Notes under the pieces: model-generated
The model's database searches: none
What the model was told of the DNA's origin: nothing
What the model saw: the letters and a program-made list of their open reading frames with translations, nothing else
Shown here: piece by piece, positions 6,571-64,000 of the stretch
Layout of the letters: the number at the start of each line of letters is the position of its first letter
How positions within the stretch are numbered: position 1 is the stretch's first letter
Source of the DNA: Callorhinchus milii
Taxonomy: Eukaryota
Assembly (NCBI RefSeq): GCF_018977255.1
Contig: NW_024704795.1
Span: 62,001 to 126,000 of the forward strand
DNA length: 64,000 bases
Reading direction: 5' to 3'
Position numbers and translations under genes: made by a program

Positions 6571-6963
6571 TACAGGCAAGCAGGGCAATGGGAGAGCAGC
6601 ACAGAGTGGGAGAAGCAAAGTGTGGGGTTGGGAGCAAGAACATTATCAGGCGTGGACGGCTCGGTTCGGGGCAACAGCCAAAATGTGCCCACAGAGGCCA
6701 GGAGCGAGCGATCAGTGGGACACGATCAGCACACGGTCTGTGGGTATATTCACACAACAGAGACACATAAATTTATCAAATCAAAACCCATTTAATATGC
6801 TGTTGAGTGATGCAGTATTGACAATTGTACATCTTACATTAAGTGCACATACTCCACACTCAAAAAATGAACACAAGGCAGAAAATCAGGATTCCTGTTT
6901 GCATATTATATTTCAGTTGCTGGAGACAGACACAGGGAACACTTCGGCAACAATCATACTCAC

Positions 6964-18900: not shown

Positions 18901-21900
18901 TGGTCTCTGTATTACTGCTCCGGTCTCTGTATAACTCACCTGGTCTTTGTATAACTGGCCGGCTCTCTGTAAAACTGGCCTGGTCTCTGTATTACTGCCC
19001 TGGTCACTATATAACAGCCTTGGTCTCTATATAAGAGGTCTGGTCTCTGTATAACAGCCCTGGTCTCTGTATAGCATCCCTTGTGTCTGTATTACCGGCC
19101 TGGTTTCTGTATTACTGGACTGGCCTCTGTATAACAGCCCTGGTTTCTGTAAAGCTGGCCTGGTCTCTGTATTACCGCTCTGGTCTCTGTATTATTGGCC
19201 TGGTCTCTTTATTACTGGCCTGGTCTCTGTATAAGAGGTCTGGTCTCTGTATAACTGGCCGGGTCTCTGTATAACTGGCCTGGTCTCTGTATAACTCACC
19301 TGGTCTTTGTATAACTGGCCGGGTCTCTGTAAAACTGGCCTGGTTTCTGTAAAACTGGCATGGTCTCTGTATAACAGCTCTGGTCTCTGTACAGCATCCC
19401 TTGTGTCTGTATTACCGGCCTGGTATTACTGGACTGGCCTCTGTATAACAGCCCTGGTCTCTGTAAAGCTGGCCTGGTCTCTGTATCACCGCTCTGGTCT
19501 CTGTATTACTGGCCTGGTCTCTGTATTACTGCCCTGGTCTCTGTATAACAGCCCTGGTCTCTGTATAAGAGGCCTGGTCTCTGGATAAGAGCCGTGGTCT
19601 CTATATTAATGCTCTGGTTTCTGTATAACTGGCCTGGTCTCTGTGTAACTCACCTGTTCTCTGTATAACTGGCCGGGTCTCTGTATAACTGGCCTGGTCT
19701 CTGTATAAATCACCTGGTCTTTGTATTACTGGCCGGGTCTCTGTAAAACTGGCCTGGTTTCTGTAAAACTGGCATGGTCTCTGTATAACAGCTCTGGTCT
19801 CTGTATAACTGGCCTGGTCTCTGTATTACTGCTCCGGTCTCTGAATAACTTGCCTGGTCTCTGTATAACTCACCTTTTCTCTGTATAACTGGCCTGGTCT
19901 CTGTATAACTCACCTGTTCTCTGTATAACTGGCCGGGTCTCTGTATAACTGGCCTGGTCTCTGTATAACTCACCTGGTCTTTGTATAACTGGCCGGCTCT
20001 CTGTAAAACTGGCCTGGTCTCTGTATTACTGCCCTGGTCTCTGTATAACAGCCCTGGTCTCTGTATAGCATCCCTTGTGTCTGTATTACCGGCCTGGTTT
20101 CTGTATTACTGGACTGGCCTCTGTATAACAGCCCTGGTTTCTGTAAAGCTGGCCTGGTCTCTGTATTACCGCTCTGGTCTCTGTATTACTGGCCTGGTCT
20201 CTTTATTCCTGGCCTGGTCTCTGTATAAGATGTCTGGTCTCTGTATAACTGGCCGGGTCTCTGTATAACTGGCCTGGTCTCTGTATAACTCACCTGGTCT
20301 TTGTATAACTGGCCTGGTTTCTGTAAAACTGGCATGGTCTCTGTATAACAGCTCTGGTCTCTGTATAGCATCCCTTGTGTCTGTATTACCGGCCTGGTTT
20401 CTGTATTACTGGACTGGCCTCTGTATAACAGCCCTGGTCTCTGTAAAGCTGGCCTGGTCTCTGTATCACCGCTCTGGTCTCTGTATTACTGGCCTGGTCT
20501 CTGTATCACCGCTCTGGTCTCTGTATTACTGGCCTGGTCTCTGTATTACTGGCCTGGTCTCTGTATAAGAGGTCTGGTCTCTCTATAAGAGGCCTGATCT
20601 CTGTATTACTGCCCTGGTCTCTGTATAACAGCCCTGGTCTCTGTATAAGAGGCCTGGTCTCTGGATAAGAGCCCTGGTCTCCATATTAATTCTCTGGTCT
20701 CTGTATAACTGGCCTGGTCTCTGTATAACTCACCTGTTCTCTGTATAACTGGCCGGGTCTCTGTATAACTGGCCTGGTCTCTGTATAACTCACCTGGTCT
20801 TTGTATTACTGGCCGGGTCTCCGTAAAACTGGCCTGGTTTCTGTAAAACTGGCATGGTCTCTGTATAACAGCTCTGGTCTCTGTATAACTGGCCTGGTCT
20901 CTGTATTACTGCTCCGGTCTCTGTATAACTCACCTGGTCTTTGTATAACTGGCCGGCTCTCTGTAAAACTGGCCTGGTCTCTGTATTACTGCCCTGGTCT
21001 CTATATAACAGCCCTGGTCTCTATATAAGAGGTCTGGTCTCTGTATAACAGCCCTGGTCTCTGTATAGCATCCCTTGTGTCTCAGTATTACCGGCCTGGT
21101 TTCTGTATTACTGGACTGGCCTCTGTATAACAGCCCTGGTTTCTGTAAAGCTGGCCTGGTCTCTGTATTACCGCTCTGGTCTCTGTATTACTGGCCTGGT
21201 CTCTTTATTACTGGCCTGGTCTCTGTATAAGAGGTCTGGTCTCTGTATAACTGGCCGGGTCTCTGTATAACTGGCATGGTCTCTGTATAACTCACCTGGT
21301 CTTTGTATAACTGGCCGGGTCTCTGTAAAACTGGCCTGGTTTCTGTAAAACTGGCATGGTCTCTGTATAACAGCTCTGGTCTCTGTATAGCATCCCTTGT
21401 GTCTGTATTACCGGCCTGGTTTCTGTATTACTGGACTGGCCTCTGTATAACAGCCCTGGTCTCTGTAAAGCTGGCCTGGTCTCTGTATCACCGCTCTGGT
21501 CTCTGTATTACTGGCCTGGTCTCTGTATTACTGGCCTGGTCGCTGTATAAGAGGTCTGGTCTCTCTATAAGAGGCCTGATCTCTGTATTACTGCCCTGGT
21601 CTCTGTATAACAGCCCTGGTCTCTGTATAAGAGGCCTGGTCTCTGGATAAGAGCCCTGGTCTCCATATTAATTCTCTGGTCTCTGTATAACTGGCCTGGT
21701 CTCTGTGTAACTCACCTGTTCTCTGTATAACTGGCCGGGTCTCTGTATAACTGGCCTGGTCTCTGTATAACTCACCTGGTCTTTGTATTACTGGCCGGGT
21801 CTCTGTAAAACTGGCCTGGTTTCTGTAAAACTGGCATGGTCTCTGTATAACAGCTCTGGTCTCTGTATAACTGACCTGGTCTCTCTATTACTGCTCCGGT

Positions 21901-23305
21901 CTCTCTATAACTGGCCTGGTCTCTGTATAACTCACCTGTTCTCTGTATAACTGGCCTGGTCTCTGTGTAACTCACCTGTTCTCTGTATAACTGGCCGGGT
22001 CTCTGTATAACTGGCCTGGTCTCTGTATAACTCACCTGGTCTTTGTATAACTGGCGGGGTCTCTGTAAAACTGGCCTGTTCTCTGTATTACTGCCCTGGT
22101 CTCTGTATAACAGCCCTGGTCTCTGTATAATAGCCCTGGTCTCTATATAAGAGGTCTGGTCTCTGTATAACAGCCCTGGTCTCTGTATAGCATCCCTTGT
22201 GCCTGTATTACTGGCCTGGTTTCTGTATTACTGGACTGGCCTCTGTATAACAGCCCTGATCTCTTTAAAGCTGGCCTGGTCTCTGTATTACCGCTCTGGT
22301 CTCTGTATTACTGGCCTGGTCTCTGTATTACTGGCCTGGTCTCTGTATAAGAGGTCTGGTCTCTGTATAACTGGCCTGGTCTCTGTATAACTGGCCTGGT
22401 CTCTGTATAACTCACCTGGTCTTTGTATAACTGGCCGGGTCTCTGTAAAACTGGCCTGGTTTCTGTAAAACTGGCATGGTCTCTGTATAACAGCTCTGGT
22501 CTCTGTATAACTGGACTGGTCTCTGTATTACTGCTCTGGTCTCTGTATAACAGCTCTGGTCTCTGTATAACTGGCCTGGTCTCTGTATTACTGCTCTGGT
22601 CTCTGTATAACTGGCCTAGTCTCTGTATAACTCACCTGTTCTCTGTATAACTGGCCGAGTCCCTGTATAACTGGCCTGGTCTCTGTATAACTCACCTGGT
22701 CTTTGTATTACTGGCCGGGTCTCTGTAAAACTGGCCTGGTTTCTGTAAAACTGGCATGGTCTCTGTATGACAGCTCTGGTCTCTGTATAACTGGCCTGGT
22801 CTCTGTATTACTGCTCCGGTCTCTGTATAACTGGCCTGGTCTTTGTATTACTGCCCTGGTCTCAGTATAACAGCCCTGGTCTCTGTATAACAGCCCCGGT
22901 CTCTATATAAGAGGTCTGGTCTCTGTATAACAGCCGTGGTCTCTATATAGCAGCCCTTGTGTCTGTATTACTGGCCTGGTCTCTGTATAAGAAGCTTGTT
23001 CTCTGTATAAAAGGCCTGGTCTCTGTATAACTGGACTGTGCTCTGTATAACAGCCCTGGCCTCTATATAAGATGTCTGGTGTCTGTATAACAGCCCTGGT
23101 CTCTGTATAGCATCCCTTGTGTCTGTATTACCGGCTGTTTTCTGTATTACTGGAATGGCCTCTGTATAACAGCCCTGGTCTCTGCAAAGCTGGCCTGGTC
23201 TCTGTATTACCGCTCTGGTCTCTGTATTACTGGCCTGGTCTCTGTATTACTGGCCTGGTCTCTGTATAAGAGGCCTGGTCTCTGTATTACTGCCCTGGTC
23301 TCTGT
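6964..23305 (+). repeat. 20-bp satellite array (~815 monomers) with higher-order structure
   Basis: Consensus CTGGTCTCTGTATAACTGGC: a near-constant CTGGTCTCTGTA plus a variable 8-mer; block duplications of ~3.7, 3.3, 2.0 and 0.75 kb. Confidence 0.97.
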
Positions 23306-36801: not shown

Positions 36802-36873
36802 CTCCCTGTCGGCGATTTGAACCCCGGTCTCCCGCGTGACAGGCGGAGATACTAACCACTGGACTAACTCGGA
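36802..36873 (-). tRNA. tRNA-Asp(GTC)-like gene, probably a pseudogene (unit 2)
   Basis: Identical to the copy at 1812-1883; TTTT terminator present. Confidence 0.8.
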
Positions 36874-42190: not shown

Positions 42191-44870
42191 CTCTGGATAA
42201 CTAGCCTGGTCTCTGTATAACAGGCCTGGTCTCTGTATAACAGCGCTGGTCTCTGCATAATAGACCTGGTCTCTGTAAGGCTGCTCTGGTCTCTGCATTA
42301 CTGGCCTGTTCTCTGTATAAGAGGTCTGGTCTCTGAATAACAGGCCTGGTCTTGGAATAATTGGCCTGGTCTCTGTAAAACTGGCCTGGTCTCTGTATAA
42401 CAGGTCTGGTCTCTGTATAACAGGCCTGGTCTCTGTGTAACAGGCCTGATCACTGTACAGCTGGCCTGGTCTCTGTATAACAGCTCTGGTCTCTGTAAAA
42501 CTGACCTGCTCTCTGTATAACAGCTCTGGTCTCTGTAAGGCTGGCCTGGTCTCTGTATTACTGCTCTGGTCTCTGTATGACTGGCCTTGTCTCTGTATTA
42601 GAGGTCTGGTCTCTGAATAAGAGGCCTGGTCTCCGAATAACTGGCCTGGTCTCTGAAAAACTGGCCTGGTCTCTGTATAACAGGCCTGGTCTCCGAATAA
42701 CTGGCCTGGTCTCTGTATAACAGCTCTGGTCTCTGTAAAACTGACCTGGTCTCTGTATAACTGGCCTGGTCTCTGTATAACAGGCCTGGTCTCTGTTTAA
42801 CAGGCCTGGTCTCTGTATAACTCGCCTGGTCTCTGTATAACTGGTCTGGTCTCTGTATAAACGGCCTGGTCTCTGTATAAGTGGCCTGGTCTCTGTATAA
42901 CAGGTCTGGTCTCTGTATAACTGGCCTGGTTTCTGAGTAGCAGGCCTCGTCGCTGTAAAACTGGCCTGGTTTCTGTAAAACTGGCCTGGTCTCTGTATAA
43001 CAGCTCTGGTCTCTGTAAGGCTGGCCTGGTCTCTGTATTACTGCTCTGGTCTCGGTATGACTGGCCTTGTCTCTGTATTGGAGGTCTGGTCTCTGTATAA
43101 GAGGCCTGGTCTCTGTATAACAGCCCTGGTCTCTGTATAAGTGGCCTGGTCTCTGTATAAGACGCCGTCTCTGTGTAAGACGCCTGGTCTCTGTATTAAT
43201 GCTCGGGTCCCTGTATAACTGGCCTGGTCTCTGCGTAACAGCCCGGGTCTCTGTACAACAGCTCTGGTCTCTGTATAAGAGGCCTGGTCTCTGTATAAGA
43301 GTCCTGGTCTCTATATTAATGCTCTGGTCTCTGTATAACTGGCCTGGTCTCTGTTTAACAGGCCTGGTCTCTGTCTAACAGGCCTGGTCTCTGTATAACT
43401 CACCTGTTCTCTGTATAACTGGCCGGGTCTCTGTATAACTGGCCTGGTCTCTGTATAACTGGCCTGGTCTCTGTTTAACAGGCCTGGTCTCTGTCTAACA
43501 GGCCTGGTCTCTGTACAACTCGCCTGGTCTATGTCTAACAGGCCTGGGCTCTGTATAACTCACCTGTTCTCTGTATAACTGGCCGGGTCTCTGTATAACT
43601 GGCCTGGTCTCTGTATAACTCGCCTGGTCTCTGTATAACTGGCAGGGTCTCTGTATAACTGGCCTGGTCTCTGTATAAAAGGCCTTGTCTCTGTATAACT
43701 GGCCTGGTCTCTGTATAACTGGCCTGGTCTCTGTATAAAAGGCCTGGTCTCTGTATAACTGGCCTGGGCTCTGTATAACAGCCCTGGTCTCTATATAAGA
43801 GGTCTGGTCTCTGTATAACAGCCCTGGTCTCTGTATAGCATCCCTTGTGTCTGTATTACTGGCCTGGTTTCTGTATTACTGGACTGGCGTCTGTATAACA
43901 GCCCTGGTCTCTGTAAAGCTGGCCTGGTCTCTGTATTACCGCTCTGGTCTCTGTATTACTGGCCTGGTCTCTGTATTACTGGCCTGGTCTCTGTATAAGA
44001 GGTCTGGTCGCTGTATAAGAGGCCTGGTCTCTGTATTACTGCCCTGGTCTCTGTATAACAGCCGTGGTCTCTATATAAGAGGTCTGGTCTCTGCATAACA
44101 GCCCTGGTCTCTGTATAGCAGCCCTTGTGTCTGTATTACTGGCCTGGTCTCTGTACAAGAAGCTTGTTCTCTGTATAAGAGGCATGGTCTCTAGAGGTCT
44201 GGTGTATCAAGCTATAATAATAATCCTTGCATTTAATATGTGGTGCACTGTCATGACTTGATGGCATCTCAAAGCGCTTCACAGAATATGCTGTTAAATG
44301 AATTGACTGTATATTTTGTTGGTGAAATCCGGCAGCCAATGGTGCACAGCAGTGTGCCACAAACAGGAGTGGAGTGAGTAACCGGATTATTGTTCTTGAA
44401 AAGATTTCTTGGTCGGCAATAATACCTTCAAGAAGCAGCAAAATACACAGGCTTTTTCGGATGCACACACACAGCAATATCACTTAGACGTGGAGGTCTC
44501 TGGTCTCTGTATAACTCACCTGTTCTCTGTATAACTGGCCGGGTCTCTGTATAACTGGTCTGGTCTCTGTATAACTCGCGTGGTCTCTGTATAACTGGCC
44601 GGGTCTCTGTATAACTGGCCTGGTCTCTGTATAAAAGGCCTGGTCTCTGTATAACTGGCCTGGTCTCTGTATAAAAGGCCTGGTCTCTGTATAACTGGCC
44701 TGGGCTCTGTATAACAGCCCTGGTCTCTATATAAGAGGTCTGGTCTCTGTATAACAGCCCTGGTCTCTGTATAGCAGCCCTTGTGTCTGTATTACTGGCC
44801 TGGTCTCTGTATAAGAAGCTTGTTCTCTGTATAAGAGGCCTGGTCTCTGTATAAGAGGTCTGGTGTATCA
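42191..44870 (+). repeat. Same 20-bp satellite, short version in unit 2, interrupted by a duplicated SINE fragment at ~44213-44495
   Basis: Same monomer and same left flank as the array starting at 6964. Confidence 0.95.
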
Positions 44871-47800
44871 AGCTATAATAATAATAATCCTTGCATTTAA
44901 TATGTAGTGCACTGTCATGACTTGATGGCATCTCAAAGCACTTCACAGAATATGCTGTTAAATGAATTGACTGTATATTTTTTGGTGAAATCCGGCAGCC
45001 AATGATGCACAGCAGTGTGTCACAAACAGGAGTGGATTGAGTGACTGGATTATTGTTCTTGAAAAGATTTCTTGGTCGGCAATAATACCTTCAAGCAGCA
45101 GCAAAACACACAGGCTTTTTCGGATGCACACACAGCAATATCACTTAGACGTGGAGGGATTATCTATTTGATACTCACATATAGATAGCAAGACATGAAC
45201 ACGGAGTATTGATTCCGTGTTTGTGTACAAGATTAGAGAGCCTCTGAAATGAATTCAAATTAATATGACACACAATCAGTATTCTCACAAATTATCAACA
45301 TAGAAACAATCCACAGGCCCACACTTACAGCAGATACACTGCCACCATCACAAGCAACTCACCTGCAAGCACCCAGTAGCATTCCTAGACATTGCAACAC
45401 AATACCTTACCAATCAGGATACATTGTTGAAAGGACGTGCACAACCTACAACACAGAGTGACATTTTGTCAGGAACACCAAATTTGAAAGTTTTTTTTTG
45501 AGGAGAGTTATTGTTAAATAAAGCCTGTCAACCTTTGCTGTCAATAGGGTTGGACTGTAGAGTGTCACTAACTGATTGGGTATGTTTAAGGGAAAGCTGG
45601 AATCCTAGAAAAGTCCTGCATGTTGTGGGTAATGGAAATTTCCAACAGACAGTGTGTCCGGCCTGACTCAGTGGTTGGTCTCTCGCCGCTGGGTCAGAAG
45701 GTTGCTGGTTCAAGCCGTAGTTTGGGACAATATCTCAACTGACTTTCCAATGCAGTGCTGGGGCAGTGTTGCACTGTCGAAGGTGCCGTCCTTTGGATGA
45801 AAAGTTAAACTGAGGTCCCGGCTGCTTGTTCAGTTGGAAGATAAAGATTGCATGGCACTAAACTACTTCCAATGTGGGGCATGAACCCACAACCTACTGG
45901 CTCAGAGGTGAGGCTGCTAAAACTGAGCCACACTGACAGACGTACACTTTATTGTCTTTCAGATTAAACTTCAGGACATGAGTAAGGAATGTTGTCCACA
46001 GCTAATGATGGATATTTCACTGTTTATCTACAGATTTGTGCTCAAGAGGAATATTTGAACTTTGGGCTTCGAGAGAAACAGATCTGAGTTCAACTCCACT
46101 CAACATGTTAAAAAGACAACTTACTCACAGGATAACAGGGAGCTCACATGATTTACCTGCAGATTCAGACAATCAGTGGAGTCCTGTAGCTCAGTGGTTA
46201 GAGCACTCGCTTTGCAAGCGAGAGACCTGAGTTCAATTCCAGGCAGAGGGCGAAACCTTGGGCAAATTTCCTTACTCCACACAGAGCCTAATAATAATCC
46301 CTCCAAAACAATACAATAATAAATTGGTCATTTTCAATCTACGACTGTTTGTGGGACATTGCTGTGCGCAATTGGCTGCCGCGTTCGCCCACAAATACAC
46401 AGCTAATTCACTTTACAATATGTTCTGTGAAGAGCTTTGGGACGTCCTCCCGACGTGAAAAGTGCTATATCAAATGCAAGGATTATTATTATAATCAGAT
46501 GTTACCCACATGAGAACCAAACACAATATCAGAGGCATAGACCATCTGGAAAAATTCAACATTCAGTAGTATTTATCTTGATGTTGAATATCCTGTTATT
46601 GAGTGTAGCCTCAGAGAATCAGTCAAACTTTGTAACAAAAGTCGATTTAAAATTAACACTGGATAAGGAGAAACATTATACCATAGTGTCATGTCTGAAC
46701 TTTCAATGTTCATATACTTACAGAATTTCAGATCGTGTAAAATTATCATATTGCAAGCAGTGACAGGATTATATGTGATTCCAAGAAAAAAAGAGTTTGT
46801 TTGAGTCAATTAATGAGAAGTTCATTTTTGTCCACAATAAAGTCACAGGCTGTTTGTCCCTGTGTGTGTGCACACGGGTGCCCCCTGTCCTGCCCCAGTG
46901 TATCGGCCGCCTGCAGTCACCCGCCGTTCCACACCATTGGAAACCGCACCAAATTCACTCAGATAAAGAAAGGAGTAAATGAGATCCTTCTTCGGGTTAA
47001 GATTAAATCGGTTTCATTAAAGTGATTGATGTGCTCATGATTATCATTTTAATTATGTGCATCACCAGGAGGCTTTCTAAGAAATGAATGTAACCTTCAA
47101 CCGTGTGAAAGTGGGTCAGAGCCTCTGTCGCTTGGGGGGAAGCTGCCAAAGAGGCATCAAAGAGCAGGAAATGGGAAGACACTGTGTGGTGTTGTAACAC
47201 GGTAGAAAATAATAATAATAATAAGAATAATCCTTGCATTTGATATATCGCCTCATCATATCTTTGACACGACTCAAATCGCTTCACAGAGTACACTGTA
47301 AAGCCACTTGACTGCATTTATTTGGTGAGGGAATCGCAGCAGTCAATTTCACACAGCAGTGTTCAACAAACAGTCTGGATTGAGTGACCAAATTCTTCTT
47401 TCCTTTTATTGACGGGATTATTACCACCGGAAAAGCGATGCGCCAATCGACTAACAAGCGGGTGCCTAGTTACTGCTCGGTAAACAGAGGCGGGAAGGGT
47501 AAGGAAATTTTGCTAACATTTGGCCCCGTCCGGAAACCTGGCCCAGGTCCTCGCGCTTGCGAGGGTGAGTGTGCCAACCGTCCCACTGCAGGATTCCTGA
47601 AGCTGTCGAACGTCTTCAGAATGTTTTCAGACAAACTCGGACACAGAGAAACCGTCAGCATTTCCGTAAATAGGCCTTATTTTTCTAAAAAACAAACAAT
47701 GGGAGTCACAATGTTTTGATATCATTCTCACATCACTACTTATTTTCAATGTGATTCGTGAGGGTGATTCAGTCCCTGTCTGAAATGCTTGTTGAGAAGC

Positions 47801-47901
47801 TGGAGGTGGAGCTCGCAGCTCAGAGGCTGATCTCTCTTCCCTGTGTCAGTGACTCTCTCCTCCCCTGACTGCAGCCAATCGTTGCGCTGTGGCCTCTATA
47901 A

Positions 47902-48372
<471 letters not shown>

Positions 48373-48898
48373 ACCCTCCGTCTCCACACTGTGTGAACAA
48401 AGGCTCTTTTAAGAGCCACCAAATAGTCAAACGGAAAGAGCGGCCTCTCCAGCAAACTGTACACTTGACACTCCTCCTCAGCTTAACGCATCTACAGCCC
48501 AAACCACTGTTAAACCGAATGTACAGTAACGGCCGGTGCCGATACAGCGAGATCTGTCTTTCTGTGGATCGTGTCTTGAACCATCCACATGCGTTCATTG
48601 TGGGAGGAAAGCGCGTCGACGCTTCGGGTCCACGACCCTGCGTCAGCACGGACCCGAAACGTTGACTCGCTTTCCTTTCTCCATTGATGCTGCCCGACCT
48701 GCTGCTGTGCTTTGCTTTCAGATTTCCGGCACCGCAGTATTTTGCCAGCGGTGTGTGGCTCACATGCATGCGGCATGATTGCAGCGTCTTCGACGCGACG
48801 CACAAAGAGGAACTCTGAACTGCACCCGGACTCCCCAAGTCATCCCAAAGCCCGCAATTATTATATCCGCCCATTCAACTTGATGTGGCGTAAGAGAT

Positions 48899-49222
48899 AT
48901 ATAATAATAATAATAATCCTGCATTTGATATAGCACTTTTCACGTCGGGAGGACGTCCCAAAGCGCTTCACAGAACACACTGTAAAGTGAATTGACTGTA
49001 TATTTGTGGGCGAACGCAGCAGCCAATTGCGCACAGCAATGTCCACAAACAGTCGTAGATTGAAAATGACCAATTTAATTTTTGTTTTGGTTTTTGGAGG
49101 GTCATTATTAGGCTCTGTGTGGAGTAAGGAAACTTGCCCAAGGTTTCGCCTCTGCCTGGAATTGAACTCCGGTCTCTCACTTGCAAAGCGAGTGCTCTAA
49201 CCACTGAGCTACAGGACTCCAC
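48899..49222 (-). mobile_element. Young full-length SINE present only in unit 2, downstream of H2A
   Basis: Complete head-to-tail copy; the site in unit 1 (~27277) is empty. Confidence 0.9.
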
Positions 49223-49330
49223 ATGGCTGGTGCGGGCCCTGTCTTTGCTGAAATGGCAAACGGCTCTTTCCTGGACAGTGTGGGTGGCTCTGAAAAGAGC
49301 CTTTGGTTGGATAGGAAAACCTCCGATGAT

Positions 49331-49834
<504 letters not shown>

Positions 49835-50037
49835 CTACGTCACATCGGGCTCTCAGCCAATCACAGCACAGAGGCTGGGAGGCTGGGGATTGGTTGCCAA
49901 CCCCCGGGGTCCCATTGGGGAACCGATTATGCTAAAGAGGGATGAACGGACTGCTTTGTTGGGATTGGATGGCGATAATATATAAGAAGACGTTCAGCCA
50001 CTGCCCGACACTGTGTCGGTGGTATCAAGAGAGCAGA

Positions 50038-50442
50038 ATGGCTGGTGAGGGCAAAACCGATGCCAAAGCCGCTAAATCCGAGGGCAAAGGAGCGCCCAAA
50101 AAAGGCAGCAAGAAAGCGATTCGCAAACCGCAGACTGCGGGCAAGAAGCGCAGGAGGTCGAGGAAGGAGAGTTACTCCATCTACGTGTACAAGGTGATGA
50201 AGCAGGTCCACCCGGACACCGGCATCTCCTCCAAGGCCATGAGCATCATGAACTCCTTTGTGAATGACATCTTCGAGCGCATCGCGTCCGAGGCTTCCCG
50301 CNNNNNNNNNNNNNNNNNNNNNNNNNNNNNNNNNNNNNNNNNNNNNNNNNNNNNNNNNNNNNNNNNNNNNNNNNNNNNNNNNNNNNNNNNNNNNNNNNNN
50401 NNNNNNNNNNNNNNNNNNNNNNNNNNNNNNNNNNNNNNNNNN
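50038..50442 (+). CDS. H2B: Histone H2B with extended N-tail; 3' part N-masked and end predicted (unit 2)
   Basis: Same N-terminal sequence as unit 1 up to IASEASR, then Ns at 50302-50456. Confidence 0.9.
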
Positions 50443-53400
50443 NNNNNNNNNNNNNNCATCTACACACAAAGGCTCTTTTCAGAGCCACACACCACTTCTC
50501 CGACAGAGCTGTAGCAAAAGCGCCTTAAACTTGTGTGTGCACTGACGATATCCAGCGCCTTGGCTCGTCGTCCCGACCTGAAAGGCACTGTACACCAATG
50601 TAATCTGTAGCTCCACCGGTGCTCATTTCAGCTGCCCTCTGCTTGCAATATAACAAATATATCAAATCTTCTCTCTGCTTGCAATATAACAAATATATCA
50701 AATCTTCTCTCTGCTTGCAATATAACAAATTTGCAAGTCACTGAAATTCTGTACATATGTGATTACTTGAGGCAGGCGTGACACTGTGTGAAAACTTATT
50801 CTTATTCGGTATTAATTTAATTTACAATGTAGTTTTGTTGCCAATTCTGGTTGATTCTGTGAACTGAGCCTGTTTGTATTGAAACAGCCAACGCATAAAG
50901 ATCCTTAAATGTTTGATGTTTTCTCATAGACCAGATGGAGAGGTATTATTTCCATTGGTTACTCAGGCACATGGGCCAGTAATGACTAATTTCAATATTT
51001 TCTGAGAATGAATGTTTGAAAAGGAAGTTGAGTATAACAAAGTATTTGGTGAGAACTGGTTTTACTGAACAGAACAACCAGTGCATATTTTCTTCATCTC
51101 GATTACAAGCCCATAACGAGGCCAATGAGATTCCATGTATTGAGGCAACAGGCGGCATCTCAGAGCTTAACAATGCTGGAGCCCAAGGCCCGAGCGGGGG
51201 GGAATGTGACTGTAGGCGCGGTTGTAAAGGAAGGTCTTCAGGCCTGACCTAAAGGGGGCGAGGCAAAGGGTTTGAGGTAGGGAGTTTAGAGATGAGGCAG
51301 TAGCTGGAGAGGAGGGACGGATCCAGGGATAGTTTTTTCAAGATGAGGGTGATGATGGCTGTTTTTAGGGTGGTGCGAACTGAACCAATGGACAAGGAGA
51401 AGTTGATGACATCGGACAGGAGAGGAGCTAGAATTTGGAGCTGGGAGACGGGGATGGGATTGAGGGAGCAGGTGGTGAATTTGAGTTTGTGGACAGTCGT
51501 GATGAGGGAGAAGGGAGAGATAGGGTCGTAGGAGTACAGGCGGTGATGTGTGGGGGTTGGGTGTGTCATGCGGGTGAGGTGATGTGGGGGCTGGAGATAT
51601 ATAGGCCCAAATTGGTAAGCCTATCCTCGAAACTCATCCCCTTCATCCCTCGTACTGACCTTGTAAATCTGCGCTGCTCTCCCTCCAAGGCAAGTACATC
51701 CTTCCTTAAATAATGAGACCAAAACTGGACACGTATTCCAGGTGTGGTCTCACTGGGGCCCTATACAGTTGCAGCAAGACTTCCCTGCACTTGTACTCTA
51801 ATCCTTTCATGATGAATGCTAACCTACTGTACGCATTCATTATGAAAGTATTAACAATCCACCACTGTTTGTGGAACAATTGGTTGCCGCTTCGCCCACA
51901 AATATACGGTCAAATCACTTTAAACTCTATTCTGTGAAGTGCTTTGAGACTTCCAGAAGATGTGAAAAGCGCTATACCAAATGCCAAGATTATTATTATT
52001 ATTATTACTCTAATCCTTTCATAATGAATGCTAACATACCGTTCGCCTTCCTAATTGCTGTTGCACCTGCAAACTAACTTTCTGCGATTGGTGTGTAAGG
52101 ACACCAAAGTCCCTCTGGACGCTAACACATTCCAATCTCTCCCCTTCTAACAAATAACCCGCTCTACTGTTTTTGCTACCTAGGTGGATACATTATACTT
52201 CATCTGCCACCTCACCTATCTGTGTATCGCTGCATTTTTTGATGTCATCCTCTGTGTTGACACTTCCTCCTAGTTTTGTGTCATCTGCAAATTTAGACAT
52301 ATTAACTTTGATGTCCTCATCTAGATTGTTGATGTAGATGGTAAATAGCTGAGGCCTATGGACTGAGCCATGTGGCACTCCACTAGTCACATCACGCCAA
52401 TCTGAACAAGACCGTTTATCCTTACTCTTTGTTTCCTACCCGTTAACCATTCCCCATTCCAAGTTCATATGCTCCCCCCTATTCCATGGGTCCTTATCTT
52501 TTGGACTAACCTTTTATGCGGCACCTTATCAAATGCCTTTTGGAAGTCCAAACAGACCACATCCACTGATTCATCCTTATCTAGTTTACTAGAAATATCC
52601 TCAAAAAACTCGACTTGGCCTAATTATGTTGTGCTCCCCTAAATATCGCACAACCACATCCTTAATCAATGATTCTAAAATTTTTCCGATCACTGATGTG
52701 AGACTAACTGGCCTTTAGATCCTCATCTTTTCCTTTCCACCTTTTTTAAATAGTAGGTGACATTTGCGATCTTCCAATCCATGGGGACTGTTCCAGAATC
52801 CAAGGAATCGCAGCATCGCAAGACCATTATCGAAATGACATTGTCTTTTTCAATGTCGTCCAATGAGTTTGAATGGTTCCTTTCTCTAAGCATCAGTGCA
52901 GAATTGATTCTTACCTAGCCCTCTCCTCTCTTTGCAAATAATATAAATGTTTGTGGATATTTGGTCCTTCTTTTATCAGTGGAATCGATGTTGTACTGGC
53001 CATGTCAGTATGTGTTATTGCACTTTGAATGGGTGGAAACATATAACATGTTGCCGACGTGTTCCCTGAGTCTGTCTCCAGCAACTGATATATAATATGC
53101 AAACAGGAATCCTGATTTTTATTGTTACACAAAAATTAGCCAGGCCGGTTACATGGAGAACAGGTTTATTATTGAGTGACTAGTCCAGTTATGCAGAGCC
53201 CAGGCCGTTATATGGAAAACAGATGTATTGTAGAGACCAGGCCAGCTATACAGAAACCAGGCCAGTTATACAGAGACAAGGACTGTATTATAGAGAGCAG
53301 GCCTGTTATATGGAGAACAGGTTTATTACAGAGGAACAAGTCCAGTTATACAGAGCCCAGGCCGTTATATGGAAAACAGGTTTATTGTAGAGACCAGGCC

Positions 53401-55849
53401 AGCTATACAGAAACCAGGCCAGTTACACAGATACCAGGCCTTTCATAAAGAGTCCAGGCCTGTAATACAGAGACCAGGCCTATTATATGGAGAACAGGTT
53501 TATTGTAGAGAGACCAGTCCAGTTATACAGAGACCAGGCCTGACATACAGAGACAAGGCCTGACATACAGAGACCAGGCCTGTCATACAGAGACCAGGCC
53601 TGTCATACAGAGACCAGGCCTATCATACAGAGACCAGGCCTGACATACAGAGACCAGGCCTGTTATTGCCGCAAACAAAATCAATTGCACAATAACAATC
53701 TCTTTGGTCAATATTCATGTGAAGCGATTTCCTGCTCATGAATAACTTGATAGCTGACAATGCGTCCATCAGAACAGCAGGAACTGGGATGAAGCTCTAA
53801 AGAACACTGCTTGTGAATGTTTGGGAGCAGGAGGAAAAGCTGTTTGAAATGACAGAGGAGCAACTTTGCTGGAATAGGTAAGAGTGAAACTAGTATTGGA
53901 CAGAATCTTGAAGGTGGAGCAGAGCTGAGAGAAGGATTGTGTGGATAAATGGGAGACAACAAAGAGGTTCTGAGAACAAGGTGGCAGAAGAGTCCTGGTT
54001 GCAGATCGAGGTCATTGGCCACTTGGACCAGGGCAGTCGGTGCTGTGTATTGAATAGCCATTGCAATGGAGCAGCTCAATCAGCTTTATAAATGCCTGAG
54101 GTTATTTCATGGAGATATTGAACCTGAGTCACATATCCCCCACACCCCACTCTGATTTTATTCTCAGTGAATCACTTCGATACAGACACAGTGCACAGGT
54201 GGGTCTTTCATCAAAAGTGAAATGATGTGAAACAAAGTTGATACTTTCAGACATGAAAGGGGCAATATTAAAAGCAAGGTTGTATTTCAATGTGCACTGA
54301 CTTGAGGGATGCCCTGCTTGGCTTCCTGAGAGGATAAGGAACACACACTGTTAATGCTAGACCAGCCAGCCAAGCTTGACAACAACATTTGGATGTAACA
54401 CCAGTCACTGGGAACAAGGAATCTCCCATTCAGCTCCAGCAATGACCCACAACAAATCATGGATGTTATGAGAAGGATTATTGTCCAGGAAACCAGGAGT
54501 AACTGAGTGCTGATTTCCAATAGTGCCCTGGAATCTCCAAACTCCACCTGAAAGGGCAAACAGCATAGTCTTCCACCTTTCGATCGTTGATGGTGAATTC
54601 CCCCCCACCTTGTAGCAGGAATAGTTTGAATAGTTTTAAGATAATGGATGGCTTTCCACAATTGTCTGACATCTTTCTGACAAAAGTAAAATTATGCTAT
54701 TTTGTTCGTAGACAAAATCTACAAACACAGTGATTATTATCATCATTATTATAATAATAATAATCCTTGCATTTGATATAGCGCTTTTCATGTCATCTCC
54801 ACATCTCAATGCACTTCACAGAATATGCTGTTAAGTGAATTGACTGTATATTTGTGGGCGAAACCGGGCAGCCAATTGCACACAGCAGCGTCCCACAAAC
54901 AGTCGTGGATTGAAAATGACCAATTATTGTTTTGTTTTTTGGAGGGATTATTATTAGGTGTGTGGAGTGAGGAAACTTGCCCAAGGTGTCTCCCTGCCTG
55001 GATTTGAAGCCAGGGGCAAGGCGAGGGCAATAACCACTGAGCTACAGGACTACAGTTCATCATAACTTCAAAGTTTATCGACATGTATTAATTCACCTGG
55101 AATGAAGGTTTTATTTTCTCAGACTTCACGTCAGTTAAATTAATTTGCACAAATATTATCTGCCAGTTTCCTCTCTTGCAGGTTTACACCTGAGCTTTCA
55201 CCCTGAGAGACAGAAATATCTGCTTCCCCTGTGGTCAGCCTCGGTATTGCAGCCCGGAGACTGGCTTCCTTATCTGATGGTAAGATCTTCCAAACCCCAC
55301 AAGACAGCAGGGCTGTGGAGGACAGCAGGACAGCAGGTTGTGTTGCTTTGAGTTATATAGAGTTAACTCTCAAGTTAATGCTGTATTACTCAAAGCAACA
55401 CAAAGGCCTGTGAGGATAAAGCACAATAGTGGAAACTTGTTGCATTTATTTACTAATAAATGCTAATGCCAATATATATTTAATGCAACAATGGTTACTG
55501 GGCTCATAATTAAGCAGAATAGTCCCAGTAAAGAGAAATCCAATTCAAATACAGTTCAGAATGTCTGTCTTGTCTCTGTATAACAGGTCTGGTCTCGGTA
55601 AACTGGCCTGGTCTCTGTATAACTGTCTGTACCGTTTCAGGTAAATTTGATGTACACATAGCGGGCAAATAATATTTTGAGGTGAAAAGCAAAAGATGTT
55701 TAGTTGATGTTTTGTGGGGATATTTGCTCTTGACACACTTGGTCTCAGTGTGTTCCAAACCGTTCAGAAGCAGCGTTGGTTACTGGGCACAGATATCATT
55801 GTTGTCTTTTACGAATGCTTGTTTGGTAACTAACAGAGACTAAAGCGAC

Positions 55850-55921
55850 CTCCCTGTCGGCGATTTGAACCCCGGTCTCCCGCGTGACAGGCGGAGATAC
55901 TAACCACTGGACTAACTCGGA
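55850..55921 (-). tRNA. tRNA-Asp(GTC)-like gene, probably a pseudogene (unit 3)
   Basis: Identical body; downstream T-run reduced to TTT. Confidence 0.78.
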
Positions 55922-56122
55922 TTCATACCGACTCAGGTGCCAAGATGCTGCCATGGACACACGCCAAAGGTCCCAGTACCTGCTGTTTATGTCTATGTTT
56001 CTGCTCTCCTGTGACAGACACTCTGCTCACCCCAGAATCATTCGTTAGGTGCAGCTCGTTTGGGAGGGAATGGGTGGCTCTGAGAAGAGCCTTTGGGGGT
56101 TAATATCAGCAGAGGGGAGAAG

Positions 56123-56773
56123 TTACTTCTTTTTGGCTGGTGTTTTCTTAGCCGCCGGCGCTTTGGGGAAACGTTTGGCGGTTTTGCCGCTTGGTCTCTT
56201 TGAGGCTGCGGGCTTCTTTACAGCTTTCTTTACCACCGCTTTCTTTACAGGTTTTTTGGCCGATTTGGGCTTCTTACTCACGGCAGCTTTCGGGGTCTTC
56301 TTGACAGCGGGAGACTTGGCTTTGTGGACTCTCTTGGGCACAGATGGTTTCTTGGGTGAACTTGGCTTTTTTGTTGCAAGTTTCTTCCGTGGAGAAGCTT
56401 TCTTGGCGGCCGCTGCCTTCTTCCCCCGCGGGGTCGGCTTCTTTGCCGCGTTGTCCTTGTTGAGTTTGAAGGAGCCGGTGGCGCCGATGCCCGTGGTCTG
56501 GATCAGGATACCTCTGTCTGCCAGTCTCTTCAGAGAAGCCCTGACCTGGTGTTTGTGAGTTTCCGGCTTGTAGCCTTTGGCGTCCAGAGTCTTCTTGATG
56601 GCGACCACGGACAAGCCCCTGCGATGCTCAGCGCTCGCCACCATCTGCTTGATCTCCTCCATCAGGTTGAAGCCGGGTTTCTGCTTCGGGGCAACGCGCT
56701 TCTTCTTGGCGGCTTTGGGCGAAGCGGTGGCGGCTGCAGGAGGCTGGACGGCGGCGGGAGCAGTTTCAGCCAT
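56123..56773 (-). CDS. H1: Linker histone H1 (unit 3)
   Basis: 216 aa, protein identical to unit 2. Confidence 0.95.
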   Translation of the reverse strand: MAETAPAAVQPPAAATASPKAAKKKRVAPKQKPGFNLMEEIKQMVASAEHRRGLSVVAIKKTLDAKGYKPETHKHQVRASLKRLADRGILIQTTGIGATGSFKLNKDNAAKKPTPRGKKAAAAKKASPRKKLATKKPSSPKKPSVPKRVHKAKSPAVKKTPKAAVSKKPKSAKKPVKKAVVKKAVKKPAASKRPSGKTAKRFPKAPAAKKTPAKKK

Positions 56774-58250
56774 AGTCCCTGTGAGAGGCTCAGTGTGTGG
56801 AGCTGCTCAGGATAGTGAAGCCAGGCGGCGCCACAGCCACTTACAGCCTCCGAGCGGACGCGGCAGAGTCAGCCGCTGCTCAGCTTCCGGGTTTCAAATC
56901 TCTGTGTTTCTGTCGTTTCCAAAACTGATCGTTTGTCTCTAAACTCGTTTGTGCTGAGAGTCAACAACAGCCTTTCGCTGAAGTGCACAATCCGCTCTTC
57001 ACTGAGAGACACTGCACAACTGAACTAAAGGCAGCAGCTTCCAGTTAAAAACGTTTGAATGTGGGATTGCCCGCGGATCAGCGCTGAATCCTGGACATAT
57101 TGACGGCGACTTGAATGATATTCTCAAACCAAACAGAATCACAGCTTAAATTGTGGCTGTGATGTCAAGCAGAGGGTCGGGGCCATCCCGTCAACAGAAA
57201 ATATTCTTACGTCTGGTGCTAGGGATTTGGAAATCCCGGGATGAAGCTGGACACACTAGCACAGTGACTGGAATCTGAGTCTGGCGCCTTTTTAACACAG
57301 AGCCGCTGACACTATCATTGAATCAGCGCCTTGAACTGGCAAACTATACCCCAGTCATTGAATTCTCAGGAGCGGATTTTCCTCTGTCCATGTTATGTGC
57401 TGCAGTCTCCCGGAGTTTGTGACTGTTTGGCAGCGCAGTGAGTGACAGGAGGCTCTGAGATAGGAGCTCGCCACAGTGTCAGTGTTCTCACAGATAGGAC
57501 AAAGGAGAAAGGATTTCACTGGTTCTGTCTGTGTGCTCCACGGTTAATAGTAATAATAATAATAGTAATCCTTGCATTTGATATAGCGCTTTTCACGTCA
57601 GGAGGACGGGACCAAAGCGCTTCACAGAACACACTGTAAAGTGAATTGACTGTATATTTGTGGGCGAACGCGGCAGCCAATTGCGCACAGCAATGTCCCA
57701 CAAACAGTCCTGGATTGAAAATGACCAATTTATTATTGTGTTTGGTTTTGGAGGGATTATTATTAGGCCTGTGTGGAGTAAGGAAACTTGCCCAAGGTTT
57801 CGCCCTCTGCCTGGAATTGAACTGATTGTTTAACTACAGAGATATAGATAGCAATAAAAGGCTTACATGGCGATTGAGGTCAAAGGGAATATTCGCAGGC
57901 ACATGCCAATCCTCTCCAGCTAGCTGACAAATCTCGAGCATGTTTCATGACACAAACAGCTGCCTGAAAATAACATGGAATGACTTTGGGCTGAGAGCCA
58001 TTCATTCTCCGTTCTCTGCCGAGCACTGAATGTGTTACAGTATCAGCTGTGGCGGTGACTCCCTGTCAGGCCATGTTACTGTGTGAATCTTTGGTTCACA
58101 CTGAGACTCGCAGCAAATTCAAAAAGCCCACCAGTTTCACTACGGTGACTACATTCTCCTTCCCATCAATAGCTACAACAGCGGGAATATACAGCGGTGG
58201 AATGGCAAAACACAGCGTTGATCATTCGGCGAAAAATAGAAAGAAACTGA

Positions 58251-59006
<756 letters not shown>

Positions 59007-59731
59007 ACATCTCCTAACGTCAAGACACAAAGAACAAAGGCTCTTATAAGAGCCGCCCAAGTGCTCATATCAAAGGCTGTAACTTCCAAACGAAACTCGT
59101 CTGGCGTCAGGCGTTTGTCCTTCACTATATATAATGTGGTCGCTCCAGCGGGAGCCCGAATAAGATTGTCCACAGACAAACCACAGCTTAGTGTTTCTGT
59201 ATCCAACTTGTCATGACTTCTGTTACTATGAATCTCACACGGACAGCCTCCATGTTCCCGAAGGTTATGTTGCTAAGGAGCTGGAGAATTGGAAACCTTG
59301 AGCCACGTAGAATGAATAGAATAGTACGGCACAGAAGGAGGCCATTCGGCCCATTGTGTCTGCCGGCTGTTTGAAAAGAGCCACCCAAGTCAGTCCCCTG
59401 CTCTCTCCCCATCGCCCTGCAAACTGGTTCTCTCCAAATAATGATCGATTTCTCTCATAAAGTGGCCATCGGCGTCCACCAGCCTTTCACACAATGGATT
59501 CAAGATCCAAACAACTCCTTGTGTGAAAACATTTCTCCTCACTTCCCCTCTTGTTTCTTTTAACTCGGTGTCCTCGGGTTACTGACCCACCCGTCAGTGG
59601 GAATAGTTGCCGATGTCATCAGCAGTGAGGGCCCTGGAATACTGCGGCCCCTCCTGGCTCAGGAGCTTTACCACAGGGGAAGAGGGGGGTGGTTTATCAG
59701 GAGTTGGTGTGACCAGACTGCTCTGTTGCAG

Positions 59732-59841
59732 ACCTGGTTCGATCACTACCTGCGCTGGAATGAGTCGGAGTTTCCGGGGGTCAAGAACGTGCGATTCCGT
59801 GCGGATCAGGTCTGGACACCTGACATCCTGCTCTATAACAG
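59732..59841 (+). CDS. Nicotinic acetylcholine receptor alpha7-subfamily subunit (CHRNA7/8/11-like), exon equivalent to CHRNA7 exon 4
   Basis: Boundaries ttgcag|ACC and AG|gtaggg, 110 bp; encodes [36 protein letters not shown] (loop A, WxPDILLYN). Confidence 0.92.
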
Positions 59842-59849
59842 GTAGGGTT

Positions 59850-60350
59850 CCACAACAGAACAGACAGGGAGCAGCTCAGACTCCTCTGGAACAGGCAACA
59901 GCTTCTCTAGAACATGCAATAACTTCTGCTGAACAGATAGTGGCCCCCCCTCACCCTGAGAACAGACAAAATCTACTCTAGAACAGACCCGGCCTACTCA
60001 AGAGCAGACAATATCTACCTTAGACCACCGACATGTAATATTTTCTAGAACAGATAAGATCTGCTCTGGAATAAGCAGAGTCTACCCTGGAGGATGGTCT
60101 GTCTAAGAACATGTAATATCTACTCTAGAACCGATGTTTACTCCAGAACAGGCAGCATCTACTTCAGAACAGACAGGGTCTCCCCCAGAATAGACAGTAT
60201 CTCCTGAAGAAAAAGAACAACAACAACAAAATTACACTTGTACAGCACCTTTCAAGTCGGGAGGACGTCCCAAGGTGCTGGACAGGCAGAGTTTCGGACA
60301 TGTAATAACTACTCTAGAACAGGCAACATCTACTCCAGAATAAGCAACAG
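59850..60350 (+). repeat. Degenerate ~21-22-bp intronic minisatellite
   Basis: Recurrent TCTACTCTAGAACAG-like motif. Confidence 0.55.
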
Positions 60351-60516
60351 CCAGGGACCAGAGTGATGGGGGTGTTGATAGGAACAAGAGATGCTGTGTA
60401 ACTCAGGGGTTAGAGCGCTCGGCTCACAAGCGAGAGGAAACGGTTAGATTCCAGGCAGTTTAGGGCAAAACGTTAGGCGAGTTTCCTTACTCCACATTTC
60501 TCTGTTTATCTAATAA

Positions 60517-60650
60517 GGTACAGATCAGCCATGTTGAGGTACAGATCAGCCATGTTGAGGTACAGATCAGCCATGACCTTATAGAATGGTGGAACAGGCT
60601 TGAGGGGCTGAATGGCCTCCTCCTGTTCCCATGTTTCTATATTCCTACGT
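60517..60650 (+). mobile_element. CR1 3' UTR fragment with an internal 21-bp triplication
   Basis: AGGTACAGATCAGCCATG(TTG) x3, followed by GAGGGGCTGAATGGCCTCCTCCTGTTCC. Confidence 0.7.
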
Positions 60651-60857
60651 CTGGCAAGTTTTCAAGCTTTGGCTTGTCCAGCTAAGACCACCCTACCCGA
60701 CTTTGGCTGCAGAGTTAACAGAAGCTGAGTGGGATGACTCCCTGCCCACAGTGACTGGTCTGCCCTACGATGAACCAGGCTGGCTGTGGGGGTATTGAGA
60801 GAGACAGGAGAGAGAGAACGTAAAAGAGAGAGAGTGACGGAATCTATTCTGTTACAG

Positions 60858-60937
60858 CGCTGATGATGACTTTGACTCAACATATAAACCCCATGTTCTC
60901 GTTAACTCCACCGGTTACTGTACGTTTATGCCTCCAG
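60858..60937 (+). CDS. nAChR alpha7-subfamily exon equivalent to CHRNA7 exon 5
   Basis: Boundaries ttacag|C and CCAG|gtaaga, 80 bp, in phase with the previous exon; encodes (S)ADDDFDSTYKPHVLVNSTGYCTFMPP(G). Confidence 0.9.
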
Positions 60938-61129
60938 GTAAGATCTTTCTCTTATGCACTCTCGCAGACTGTCTCTCAAACACACTGTCTCTCACACTCA
61001 CACACAGTCACTCTCATACCCACTCTTACATTCTCTCATTCTCTCACATTCACACACTCACACTCTCTCACAAACTCATATTCCCTCTCTCATTCTCTCT
61101 CACCCACAGACTCTCTGTCTCTCACACAG

Positions 61130-61297
61130 GTATATTCCGAAGCTCGTGCCAGGTTGATGTGAGGTGGTTTCCCTTTGACACACAGGAATGTGAGCTAAAG
61201 TTCGGATCCTGGACCTATGATGGCTGGCTCCTCGATCTGCGAATGTCACCCGCTGATTTATCTGGGTTCATCCCAAACGGGGAGTGGGACCTGCTGG
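61130..61297 (+). CDS. nAChR alpha7-subfamily exon equivalent to CHRNA7 exon 6 (Cys-loop)
   Basis: Boundaries cacag|GT and CTGG|gtgaga, 168 bp; encodes GIFRSSCQVDVRWFPFDTQECELKFGSWTYDGWLLDLRMSPADLSGFIPNGEWDLL, containing the C-x13-C loop and loop B. Confidence 0.94.
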
Positions 61298-61299
61298 GT

Positions 61300-62830
61300 G
61301 AGAGAGAGGGAGTATGTGAGAAAAAGAGTGTGAGGGAGAGAGTGTGTGTGCAAGAGAGTATGTGAGAGGGAGAGCGTGTGTGTAAGAGAGGGTTGTGAGA
61401 GTGTGCGGTAGAGAGTGAGAGGGGGAAAGAGATGGGGAGAGAGAGAGAGAGAGTGAGTGAGAGAGAGGGAAGTGGAACCTTCTGGGTGAGTATCCTGTTG
61501 CTCAGTGGTTAGAGCACCCGCTTTGCAAGCGAGAGGACCTGGGTTCAATTCCCGGGCGGGGGCGAAGAGAGAGCGTGTGAGGGACTCATTTAACCAGGTT
61601 CAACGGGGAGTGGGACCTGATGGGTGAGAGAGGGACGGTGTGAGAGAGAGAGAGAGAGAGGGGGGTGGGGTGAGGGTGAGAGAGAGAATGTGAGAGAGAG
61701 GGGAGAGAGAGTGTGAGAGAGAATGAGAGAGAGAGAGAGGAAATAGAGTGTTTGAGAGAGGGAGAGAGTGTGCTTGAGAGAGAGGGAGTCGGAGGGGGAG
61801 ATGGATAGAGAGTGTGAGACAGAGGAGTGGGACATTCTGGATGAGAGATGGAGTGTGAGGGAGAGAGAAATACTGCGTGAAGTTAGAGAGAGAGTATCTG
61901 AGAGGGAGGGGAGGGAGAGAGTATGTGTGTGAGAGAAGGGGGGGGGGGGGTGGAGAGAGTGTGTGAGAGAGAGTGTGTGAGACATGCTGGATGAGAGAGG
62001 GAGGGTAAAAGGAGAGGGAGAGTGTGTGAGATGAGAGTGTAAGAGAGTGAGGGATAGGGGGGAGTGGGACCTGCCGGGTGCATGTGAGAGAGAGGGAGCC
62101 ATGGGAGAGTGATTCTCTCTGTCTATATGTGTGTCTCTCCCCATCTCTCTTTCACTCTCTCTCTCTCCCCCACCACCCCACCTCCCTCTATTTTTCTCTC
62201 GCTCTCTCACACACATTCACACTCTTATTCCCTACCCCTCTCTCTAACACTCTCTCATACTTGGCCTCTCTCCCCGCCCCCTCTCTGTGTCACTCTCTCA
62301 GTGTTTTTCTCTCTCTCTCTCTCTCACACATACACATGCTCTCTCTCGGTCTCACTATGTGTAAGACTCCAGGACAGAGCAAGGTGGTGGTGTTGTTGTT
62401 TAGATATCCAGTCTAAAAAACAACCATCACACACACTCTCCTCGCACACACTTATTCTCCCTAACACACTCGCTCACTATGCCTATTATCTCTGTCATTC
62501 ATTCTCTCTGTGTCTCACTCTCTCTCTCACTCCCAGCACAGAGAAACAAGGTGTTCTATGTATGTGTGTCTCTCTTTCTGTGTGTCACTCTCTCTCCCGC
62601 CCTCTCTCACTCTGTCTCTCTTCCACACTCCCTCTTTATGTCACTGTATGTGTCTAACCCTCTCTCGCTCACATTCTCTCTGAGTCAGAGAAACAAGGTG
62701 TTCTATGATTCTGTGTATGTGTCTCTGTGTCACACTCTCACTCTCTCTGTCTCTTTCTCTGTCACTCTCTCTGAGTCTCTCTCTCACTGTGTGTCACGCA
62801 CTCACTCTGTTGTCGCTCTCTCTCACACAC
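61300..62830. repeat. GA-rich then CT-rich low-complexity intron sequence
   Basis: (GA)n/(GT)n switches to (CT)n/(CA)n at ~62110. Confidence 0.85.
61485..61567 (+). mobile_element. SINE tRNA-like head fragment (another at ~60390-60495)
   Basis: GCTCAGTGGTTAGAGCACCCGCTTTGCAAGCGAGAGGACCTGGGTTCAATTCCC. Confidence 0.75.
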
Positions 62831-62841
62831 TCATAAAATCG

Positions 62842-63500
62842 TAGAATATTACAGCACAGAAGGAGGCCATTCAGCCCATTGTGCCTGCTCTTTGGAAGAG
62901 CTTCCAATCAGTCCCCCTTCCCCGCTTTTCCCCATATCCCTGCAATGTTCTTCCTCTTCAAGAACCTAATGAATTCCCTTTTAAAAGTTGTTATTGAATC
63001 TGTTCCACCAGCCTTTCAGGAGTGCATTCCAGACTGTAACAACTTTCTGTATAAAATAAATTCTCCTCATCTCCCTCCTGGTTCTTTTACCAATTATCTT
63101 AAATCTATGTCTCCTGGTTACTGACCCACCTGCCAATGGAAACAGTTTTTCTCTATTTACTCTATCAAACCCCCTAATAATTTTGAAGACTTATATTAAA
63201 TCTCACCTTAACCTTCTCTGCTCTAAGAACAACAATCCAAGCCTCTCTAGTCTCTCCACATATCTAAAGTCCCTCATCCCTGGTACAAATCTGGTAAATC
63301 TCCTCTGCACCCTCTCCAAAGCCTTAATATCCTTCCTAAAGTGTAGTGCCCAGAATTGGACACAATATTCCAGCTGAGGCCTAACCAATGACCTATAAAG
63401 CTTAGCAGAACTTCCTTGCTTTTGTACTCTATTCCTCTATTATAAAGCCAAGGATCCCATATGCTTTTTTAACAGCTCAATCAACCTGTTCTGCCACCTA
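62842..63500 (-). mobile_element. CR1 LINE 3' end
   Basis: Translates to [12 protein letters not shown]...[28 protein letters not shown]; CR1 tail present. Confidence 0.88.
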
Positions 63501-63850
63501 CATACAGCAACAACAAAATGACATGTGTTTAGCGCCTTTCACATCTGGAGGATGTCCCAAGGCACTAGAGATTCAGTGTTTCGGACCCAAGCTGGGGTTT
63601 GGGATCGGGGAAGGTGGAGGATGGGGTGGGGGGGGGAGCAGGAAGATTGAAAGCATGGTCGAAGAGGAGGGTCTTGAGACAGGTCTTGAAGGTGGCGAGG
63701 GAGGGGGCAAGGTGGAGGGAATGTGGGTTGGAGTTCCAGAGGGTGGCGGCAGAGTTGCAGAAGGCCCGCCCACCAACCGTGGGGCAGGCGAGGCAGGGAC
63801 GTGAAGTAGGTCGGAGCACGCTGAGCGGAGGGAGCGAACAGGAGGAAGGG
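63500..63850 (-). mobile_element. L2 LINE 3' end
   Basis: Translates to GGRAFCNSAATLWNSNPHSL...FKTCLKTLLF. Confidence 0.7.
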
Positions 63851-64000
63851 AGGAGCAAGATCATGGAGGTCTTTGAAGGTGTCTCTCGCTCTGTGTGTGT
63901 CAGTGTGTCTCCCTCACTCTCTCTCGCTGTCTCTCTCTCACTCTCTGAGTCTCTCTCTCTGTCTCTGTCTCTCACTCTCTCTCTCCCTCACTCTGTGTCT

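Follow-up and report, generated by a model that had tools for sequence, protein, structure and literature searches.

Histone units and receptor exons in the window

The window, that is the whole stretch of DNA analysed (64,000 nucleotides), corresponds to positions 62,001-126,000 of contig C54 (G000:C54:62001-126000; 367,113 bases in total) of Callorhinchus milii. It contains 12 histone genes (three H1, three H4, two H3, two H2A and two H2B), followed by three exons of a nicotinic receptor gene. A sequence-only reading had described an array of 12 or more histone genes in front of the receptor exons, with sense-strand stem-loops of H4, H3 and H2B, and this description holds: the stem-loops are present for H3 (two), H2B (two) and H4 (three). 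On C54 as a whole, 29 histone matches lie upstream of the point where histone and receptor sequence meet. The units of the array occur in both orientations and together with long satellites. A 20-bp minisatellite separates H4 and H3 of successive units (window 6963-23305, 819 copies; 42191-44192, 100 copies). Each H1 is followed on the same strand, at a distance of about 200 bp, by a tRNA-Asp(GTC) (1812-1883, 36802-36873 and 55850-55921 (-)); predicted tRNA-Ala genes at 24571, 46181 and 61492 are possibly the heads of SINEs. The H4 stem-loops (5084, 40082 and 59039) are followed by GCCCAA; the other histone genes here have an ACCCA-type flank.

The third unit (H3, H2A, H2B, H1, H4; window 44499..59608), which includes H1 at 56123..56773 on the minus strand and H4 at 58695..59006 on the plus strand with its stem-loop at 59039, has an excess of private indels. 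Its H2A copy (49331-49714, minus strand) is frameshifted, with five single-base indels relative to an intact copy, and reflects either sequencing error or a pseudogene. In 3.8 kb, unit 3 has eight private indel events (ten before one split deletion of ~82 bp was merged) versus zero to three in four other copies; in the H3-H2A-H2B block the count is five versus zero to two. This excess suggests that few reads support the unit. Its divergence could also come from real decay, which would fit the eight private substitutions in the H3-H2B block (zero to three elsewhere). The closest relative of unit 3 is an inverted unit at C54 28-45 kb (99.1-99.6%).

The receptor exons lie on the plus strand at 59732-59841 (exon 4, 110 bp), 60858-60937 (exon 5, 80 bp) and 61130-61297 (exon 6, 168 bp, with the Cys-loop). 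All three are bounded by AG and GT and share a single reading frame, as the sequence-only reading had it. Exons 4 and 6 match the Pfam domain Neur_chan_LBD (PF02931; E = 6.8e-9 and 8.2e-15) and are therefore not chance open frames. The ligand-binding domain and Cys-loop of the alpha7/8/11 subfamily are in place, and the vicinal cysteine pair is present in the database protein P0122. The assignment to exons 4-6 of an alpha7-type subunit was correct, and the gene can be named more exactly as CHRNA11. A Callorhinchus milii protein matches exon 6 at 100% identity; apart from this, the exon is nearest to fish alpha 11. Phylogeny, which had been proposed for choosing between alpha7, 8 and 11, places the gene with alpha 11 proteins in a clade of 12 rows (support 98/92; 33 proteins). 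In the same tree a paralogue on contig C26 falls among the alpha7 rows with its fork open, and one on contig C1 falls in a separate clade (99/100) that we take to be alpha8. The receptor exons in the window belong to CHRNA11, a gene already known and annotated in this species. Exons 7-10 follow exon 6 beyond the window, from C54 126027 to ~131.8 kb. In intron 6, the 3' end of exon 6 and its donor recur as short, decayed copies (window 61602-61626 and ~62058-62080), possible alternative donors.

Complete CHRNA11 on contig C175 and its histone neighbour

The sequence-only reading had found no receptor exons earlier in the window. This is borne out and extends further: none of exons 1-3 occurs anywhere in the 367,113 bases of C54. 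They are found on the minus strand of contig C175, where exon 3 (45 bp) lies at 50193-50149, exon 2 (140 bp) at 57916-57777 and a candidate exon 1 (52 bp) at 59419-59368. The latter contains an ATG and a hydrophobic stretch and is in the right phase, though its donor is weak; this candidate signal-peptide exon is used by neither database model (P0003, P0122). Exon 2 has three matches genome-wide, one of 100% on C175 and the paralogues on C26 (61%) and C1 (63%). The ten exons on C175 measure 52 (candidate), 140, 45, 110, 80, 168, 195, 87, 110 and 408 bp and encode 464 amino acids with zero internal stops. Human alpha7-type exon sizes served for comparison. Ten exons and nine introns, with exons 4-6 of 110, 80 and 168 bp, are what the alpha7/8/11 subfamily has. 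Intron 3 is 857 bp long on C175 and contains no histone gene.

Histone-unit sequence begins on C175 at 98.8 kb, behind a long repeat tract and ~39 kb upstream of CHRNA11. Among 40 scored candidates, the spacer between H1 and H4 matches only C54, C175 and, more diverged, C104; its confinement to these contigs makes the histone cluster and CHRNA11 neighbours. The histone cluster is the upstream neighbour of CHRNA11 on both C54 and C175. The diverged spacer copy on C104 (~79-82 kb, 76-92%) is probably a second histone locus. No account of CHRNA11 next to a histone cluster was found in the literature searched, and so this neighbourhood may be unreported in print. It is a minor point; together with the candidate exon 1 missing from the database models, it is a small but real addition to the description of the gene.

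We had assumed that CHRNA11 would neighbour OTUD7B and the human 1q21 HIST2 region. This synteny was not supported, with zero of six OTU matches on C54 or C175, a count that a multi-exon gene can escape. Downstream fragments at C54 ~142-270 kb match nesprin-3/spectrin, PMT (POMT2-like), PHM7_cyt (TMEM63-like) and DHHC; of the 68 fragments searched, which were picked by hand, nearly all came from the first 450 of 796 candidates. This set is reminiscent of human 14q24 and not of the expected 1q21-type region.

The join at 59608/59609 and the overlap between the two contigs

The likeness of unit 3 to its sister units ends at 59608, and the acceptor of exon 4 follows 123 bp further on, which agrees with the earlier description of a unit stopping shortly before an intact acceptor. 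The intervening 59609..59731 (plus strand) is the final 123 bp of the 857-bp intron 3 of CHRNA11. The join at 59608..59609 is blunt and contains no N. On its left it cuts a dispersed-repeat relic (59317..59608; labelled CR1-like in the sequence-only reading) that runs on in all four other unit copies checked. On its right it cuts another repeat, which has thousands of candidates genome-wide; this high-copy repeat, whole on C175, is left as a stump in the first ~55 bp. The 28-base pattern across the join occurs once in the genome. Microhomology is 0 bp on both sides, which rules against repeat-mediated recombination, and with no GATC within 50 bp a proximity-ligation scar was rejected as well. 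The part of intron 3 upstream of the join matches at 100% in a single place among 40 scored matches, so that no reciprocal join was seen.

From the join onwards (window 59609..64000 and beyond, plus strand), C54 121609-171027 corresponds to C175 49414-1 over 49.4 kb at 99.88% identity, the boundary of the match being window position 59609 itself. The two contigs carry identical, intact exons 4-10, and the Pfam search scores two exons on C175 identically to those of C54. The second copy continues, near-identical, for ~39 kb downstream; a nesprin exon region likewise has a duplicate on C175. Because C175 ends within the shared segment, no second, distal breakpoint is visible. Of 35 substitutions between the contigs, 34 fall into one 1.5-kb repeat block (C54 158091-159566), for which mis-polishing and gene conversion are possible causes, and one falls into the remaining 47,938 bp. 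Outside the block there are 16 indel columns, all of them G or C and located within or next to G/C runs.

NCBI annotates both copies under the name 'alpha-7-like', with 483 amino acids on C175 (107,363 bp) and 397 on C54 (XP_042201412.1; 367,113 bp). Residues 13-397 of P0121 and 99-483 of P0122 are identical. The first exon of XP_042201412.1 (window 59228..59263, plus strand) is 36 bp of H4 3' spacer situated past the H4 stem-loop, and its 12 codons occur in five places on C54. A short-protein search with the start formed by the H4 spacer and exon 4, or with the native start, returned four matches at 73-79% identity, none of them CHRNA11 of this species. The shark alpha11-like models P0093, P0124 and P0125 begin near exon 3/4, which we read as incomplete annotation. 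XP_042201412.1 is probably a false gene gain and should be left out of surveys of the receptor family.

Origin of the headless copy and comparison with known systems

We favour, with some reserve, the view that the headless CHRNA11 copy in the window is a false duplication with an aberrant join. The assembly would branch at 59608/59609: the C175 branch would be the ordinary CHRNA11, the C54 branch would jump from the histone array into intron 3, and both would run into one shared trunk, so that one locus would have been emitted twice. The C54 copy would have been joined onto a thinly supported histone unit 3. In favour of this view are the overlap with its one substitution outside the repeat block, the indels confined to G/C runs or their vicinity, the lack of a visible second breakpoint and, among the scored matches, of a reciprocal join, the indel excess of unit 3 and, as a weak hint, the depth and the unbroken pieces of the DNA runs described below. 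Since the join has no shared sequence, an ordinary overlap misjoin fails to explain it. Moreover, the sequences it connects are genuine neighbours. A random chimeric read would seldom link such neighbours (~1e-4 by our own estimate, 100 kb in 1 Gb), which makes a real local molecule or a scaffolding step the better candidate. The locality of the join would be accounted for by scaffolding or gap filling, and equally by one haplotype having a real deletion or inversion. It is this locality without shared sequence that keeps our preference for an artefact modest and leaves a rearrangement private to the animal some weight. As a matter of sequence, near-identity cannot separate the possibilities: it fits an artefact, haplotypes merged by correction or a very young duplicate alike.

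The most serious competitor, which we consider a good deal less likely, is a private or rare rearrangement. A deletion or inversion would lead from the histone array into intron 3 of CHRNA11 on one chromosome of the assembled animal; the result would be a null allele, and C54 and C175 would be the assemblies of the two haplotypes. A blunt join between true neighbours, free of homology and of N, is what end-joining produces, and an array that has long satellites and units of either orientation fits as well. Unit 3 resembles the inverted C54 unit (28-45 kb) as an allele might. Two haplotypes should, however, differ more than the shared segment does: it has one difference in 47.9 kb outside the repeat block, whereas sequencing run X2 differs from the segment at 1 of 387 bases. 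The indel excess on the histone side and the missing reciprocal join among the scored matches also speak against it.

A fixed and very young segmental duplication, with a 5'-truncated CHRNA11 behind H4 in the manner of human CHRFAM7A, appears improbable. Here, a transcript reading through from H4 might be spliced to exon 4 via the donor at 59264; the intact and identical exons 4-10 on both contigs and the 397-residue protein modelled at this site would suit it. Against it stand the lack of a second breakpoint and a modelled first exon that is ordinary H4 spacer, found in five places and past the stem-loop. Sequencing depth argues in the same direction, weakly, as it comes from one study. Four DNA runs (X1-X4; 74-87% of sampled words present) were compared with C175 across the join point. 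Exon 4 gave one unique contig per run, at a depth of 10.3 (X1), 7.84 (X2), 11.5 (X3) and 9.5 (X4); these are contig depths, not copy numbers. Relative to the median of other copies of the repeat, the ratios were 1.30, 0.91, 1.17 and 1.07, with medians from 9, 8, 11 and 8 contigs (15 of 24 joint rows listed). A piece present only on C175 had a depth of 11.9 versus 11.5 for exon 4 in X3 and of 7.5 versus 9.5 in X4. Exon 4 is at about single-copy depth in four of four runs, which weakly contradicts a fixed second copy; the ratio of 1.30 in X1 and the 9.5 versus 7.5 in X4 are compatible with one extra copy. Depth in these runs cannot probe a private rearrangement. In two of the four runs (X1 and X4) a listed piece spans the join point unbroken in the C175 form, with 36 and 37 letters on either side; such pieces may stem from other copies, because the repeat is high-copy and the 31 letters at their start do not match. 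There are 341 loose ends, and none of the 24 listed falls at the join point.

There is a slight chance, smaller still, that the join is real and segregating. A young CHRNA11 without exons 1-3, lying 600 bp behind H4, could then be read through via 59264 into exon 4 and give a subunit without signal peptide, an independent and possibly S-phase-driven parallel to CHRFAM7A.

The first idea of the sequence-only reading, a histone array nested in a receptor intron 3 of more than 59 kb, finds support only in how the features are ordered along the window and is refuted, since exons 1-3 are missing across 367 kb of C54, the only exon 2 of this gene lies on C175, where exon 3 is 857 bp from exon 4 with no histone gene between them, and host exons do not flank the histone genes on both sides on C54. 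As for its remaining options, we prefer a misjoin or false duplication, though unproven, to a true 5'-truncated duplicate. Most likely, the nested or fused arrangement is not a biological feature at all. Transcription of CHRNA11 would start at its own exon 1 and pass through none of the histone 3'-processing signals; as the ordinary gene meets no histone stem-loop, the proposed coupling of receptor expression to the cell cycle via stem-loop/U7 sites has no basis, be the copy an artefact or a private rearrangement.

In passages of PMC13525598, nothing was found on sharks or on nesting. Three known systems are close to the present case. The alpha7/alpha8/alpha11 subfamily has nine introns, and CHRNA11 of the Australian ghostshark is strongly diverged (Pedersen et al. 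2019, PMC6354393). Our gene has nine introns, groups with fish alpha 11 and has a long branch that matches the reported divergence; on C175 it shows no difference from the gene in that description. The false gene gains of Ko et al. (2022, PMC9516828) resemble the copy in the window in that more than 50% of a coding sequence is present twice, near-identical, and annotated as two '-like' genes. The diagnostics given there are source-read depth, which should not exceed the haploid level on either copy, k-mer multiplicity and read-pair discordance, whereas the case made here builds on indirect signs in the sequence and concerns a gapless join. Human CHRFAM7A (PMC8998457) is likewise an alpha7-type copy that is truncated at the 5' end, lacks a signal peptide and follows foreign sequence. 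It comprises exons 5-10 in an in-frame fusion to FAM7A exons and is expressed, whereas the copy in the window comprises CHRNA11 exons 4-10 and is known from the assembly and an automatic model. If the join were real and expressed, the chimaera would offer a natural parallel of CHRFAM7A.
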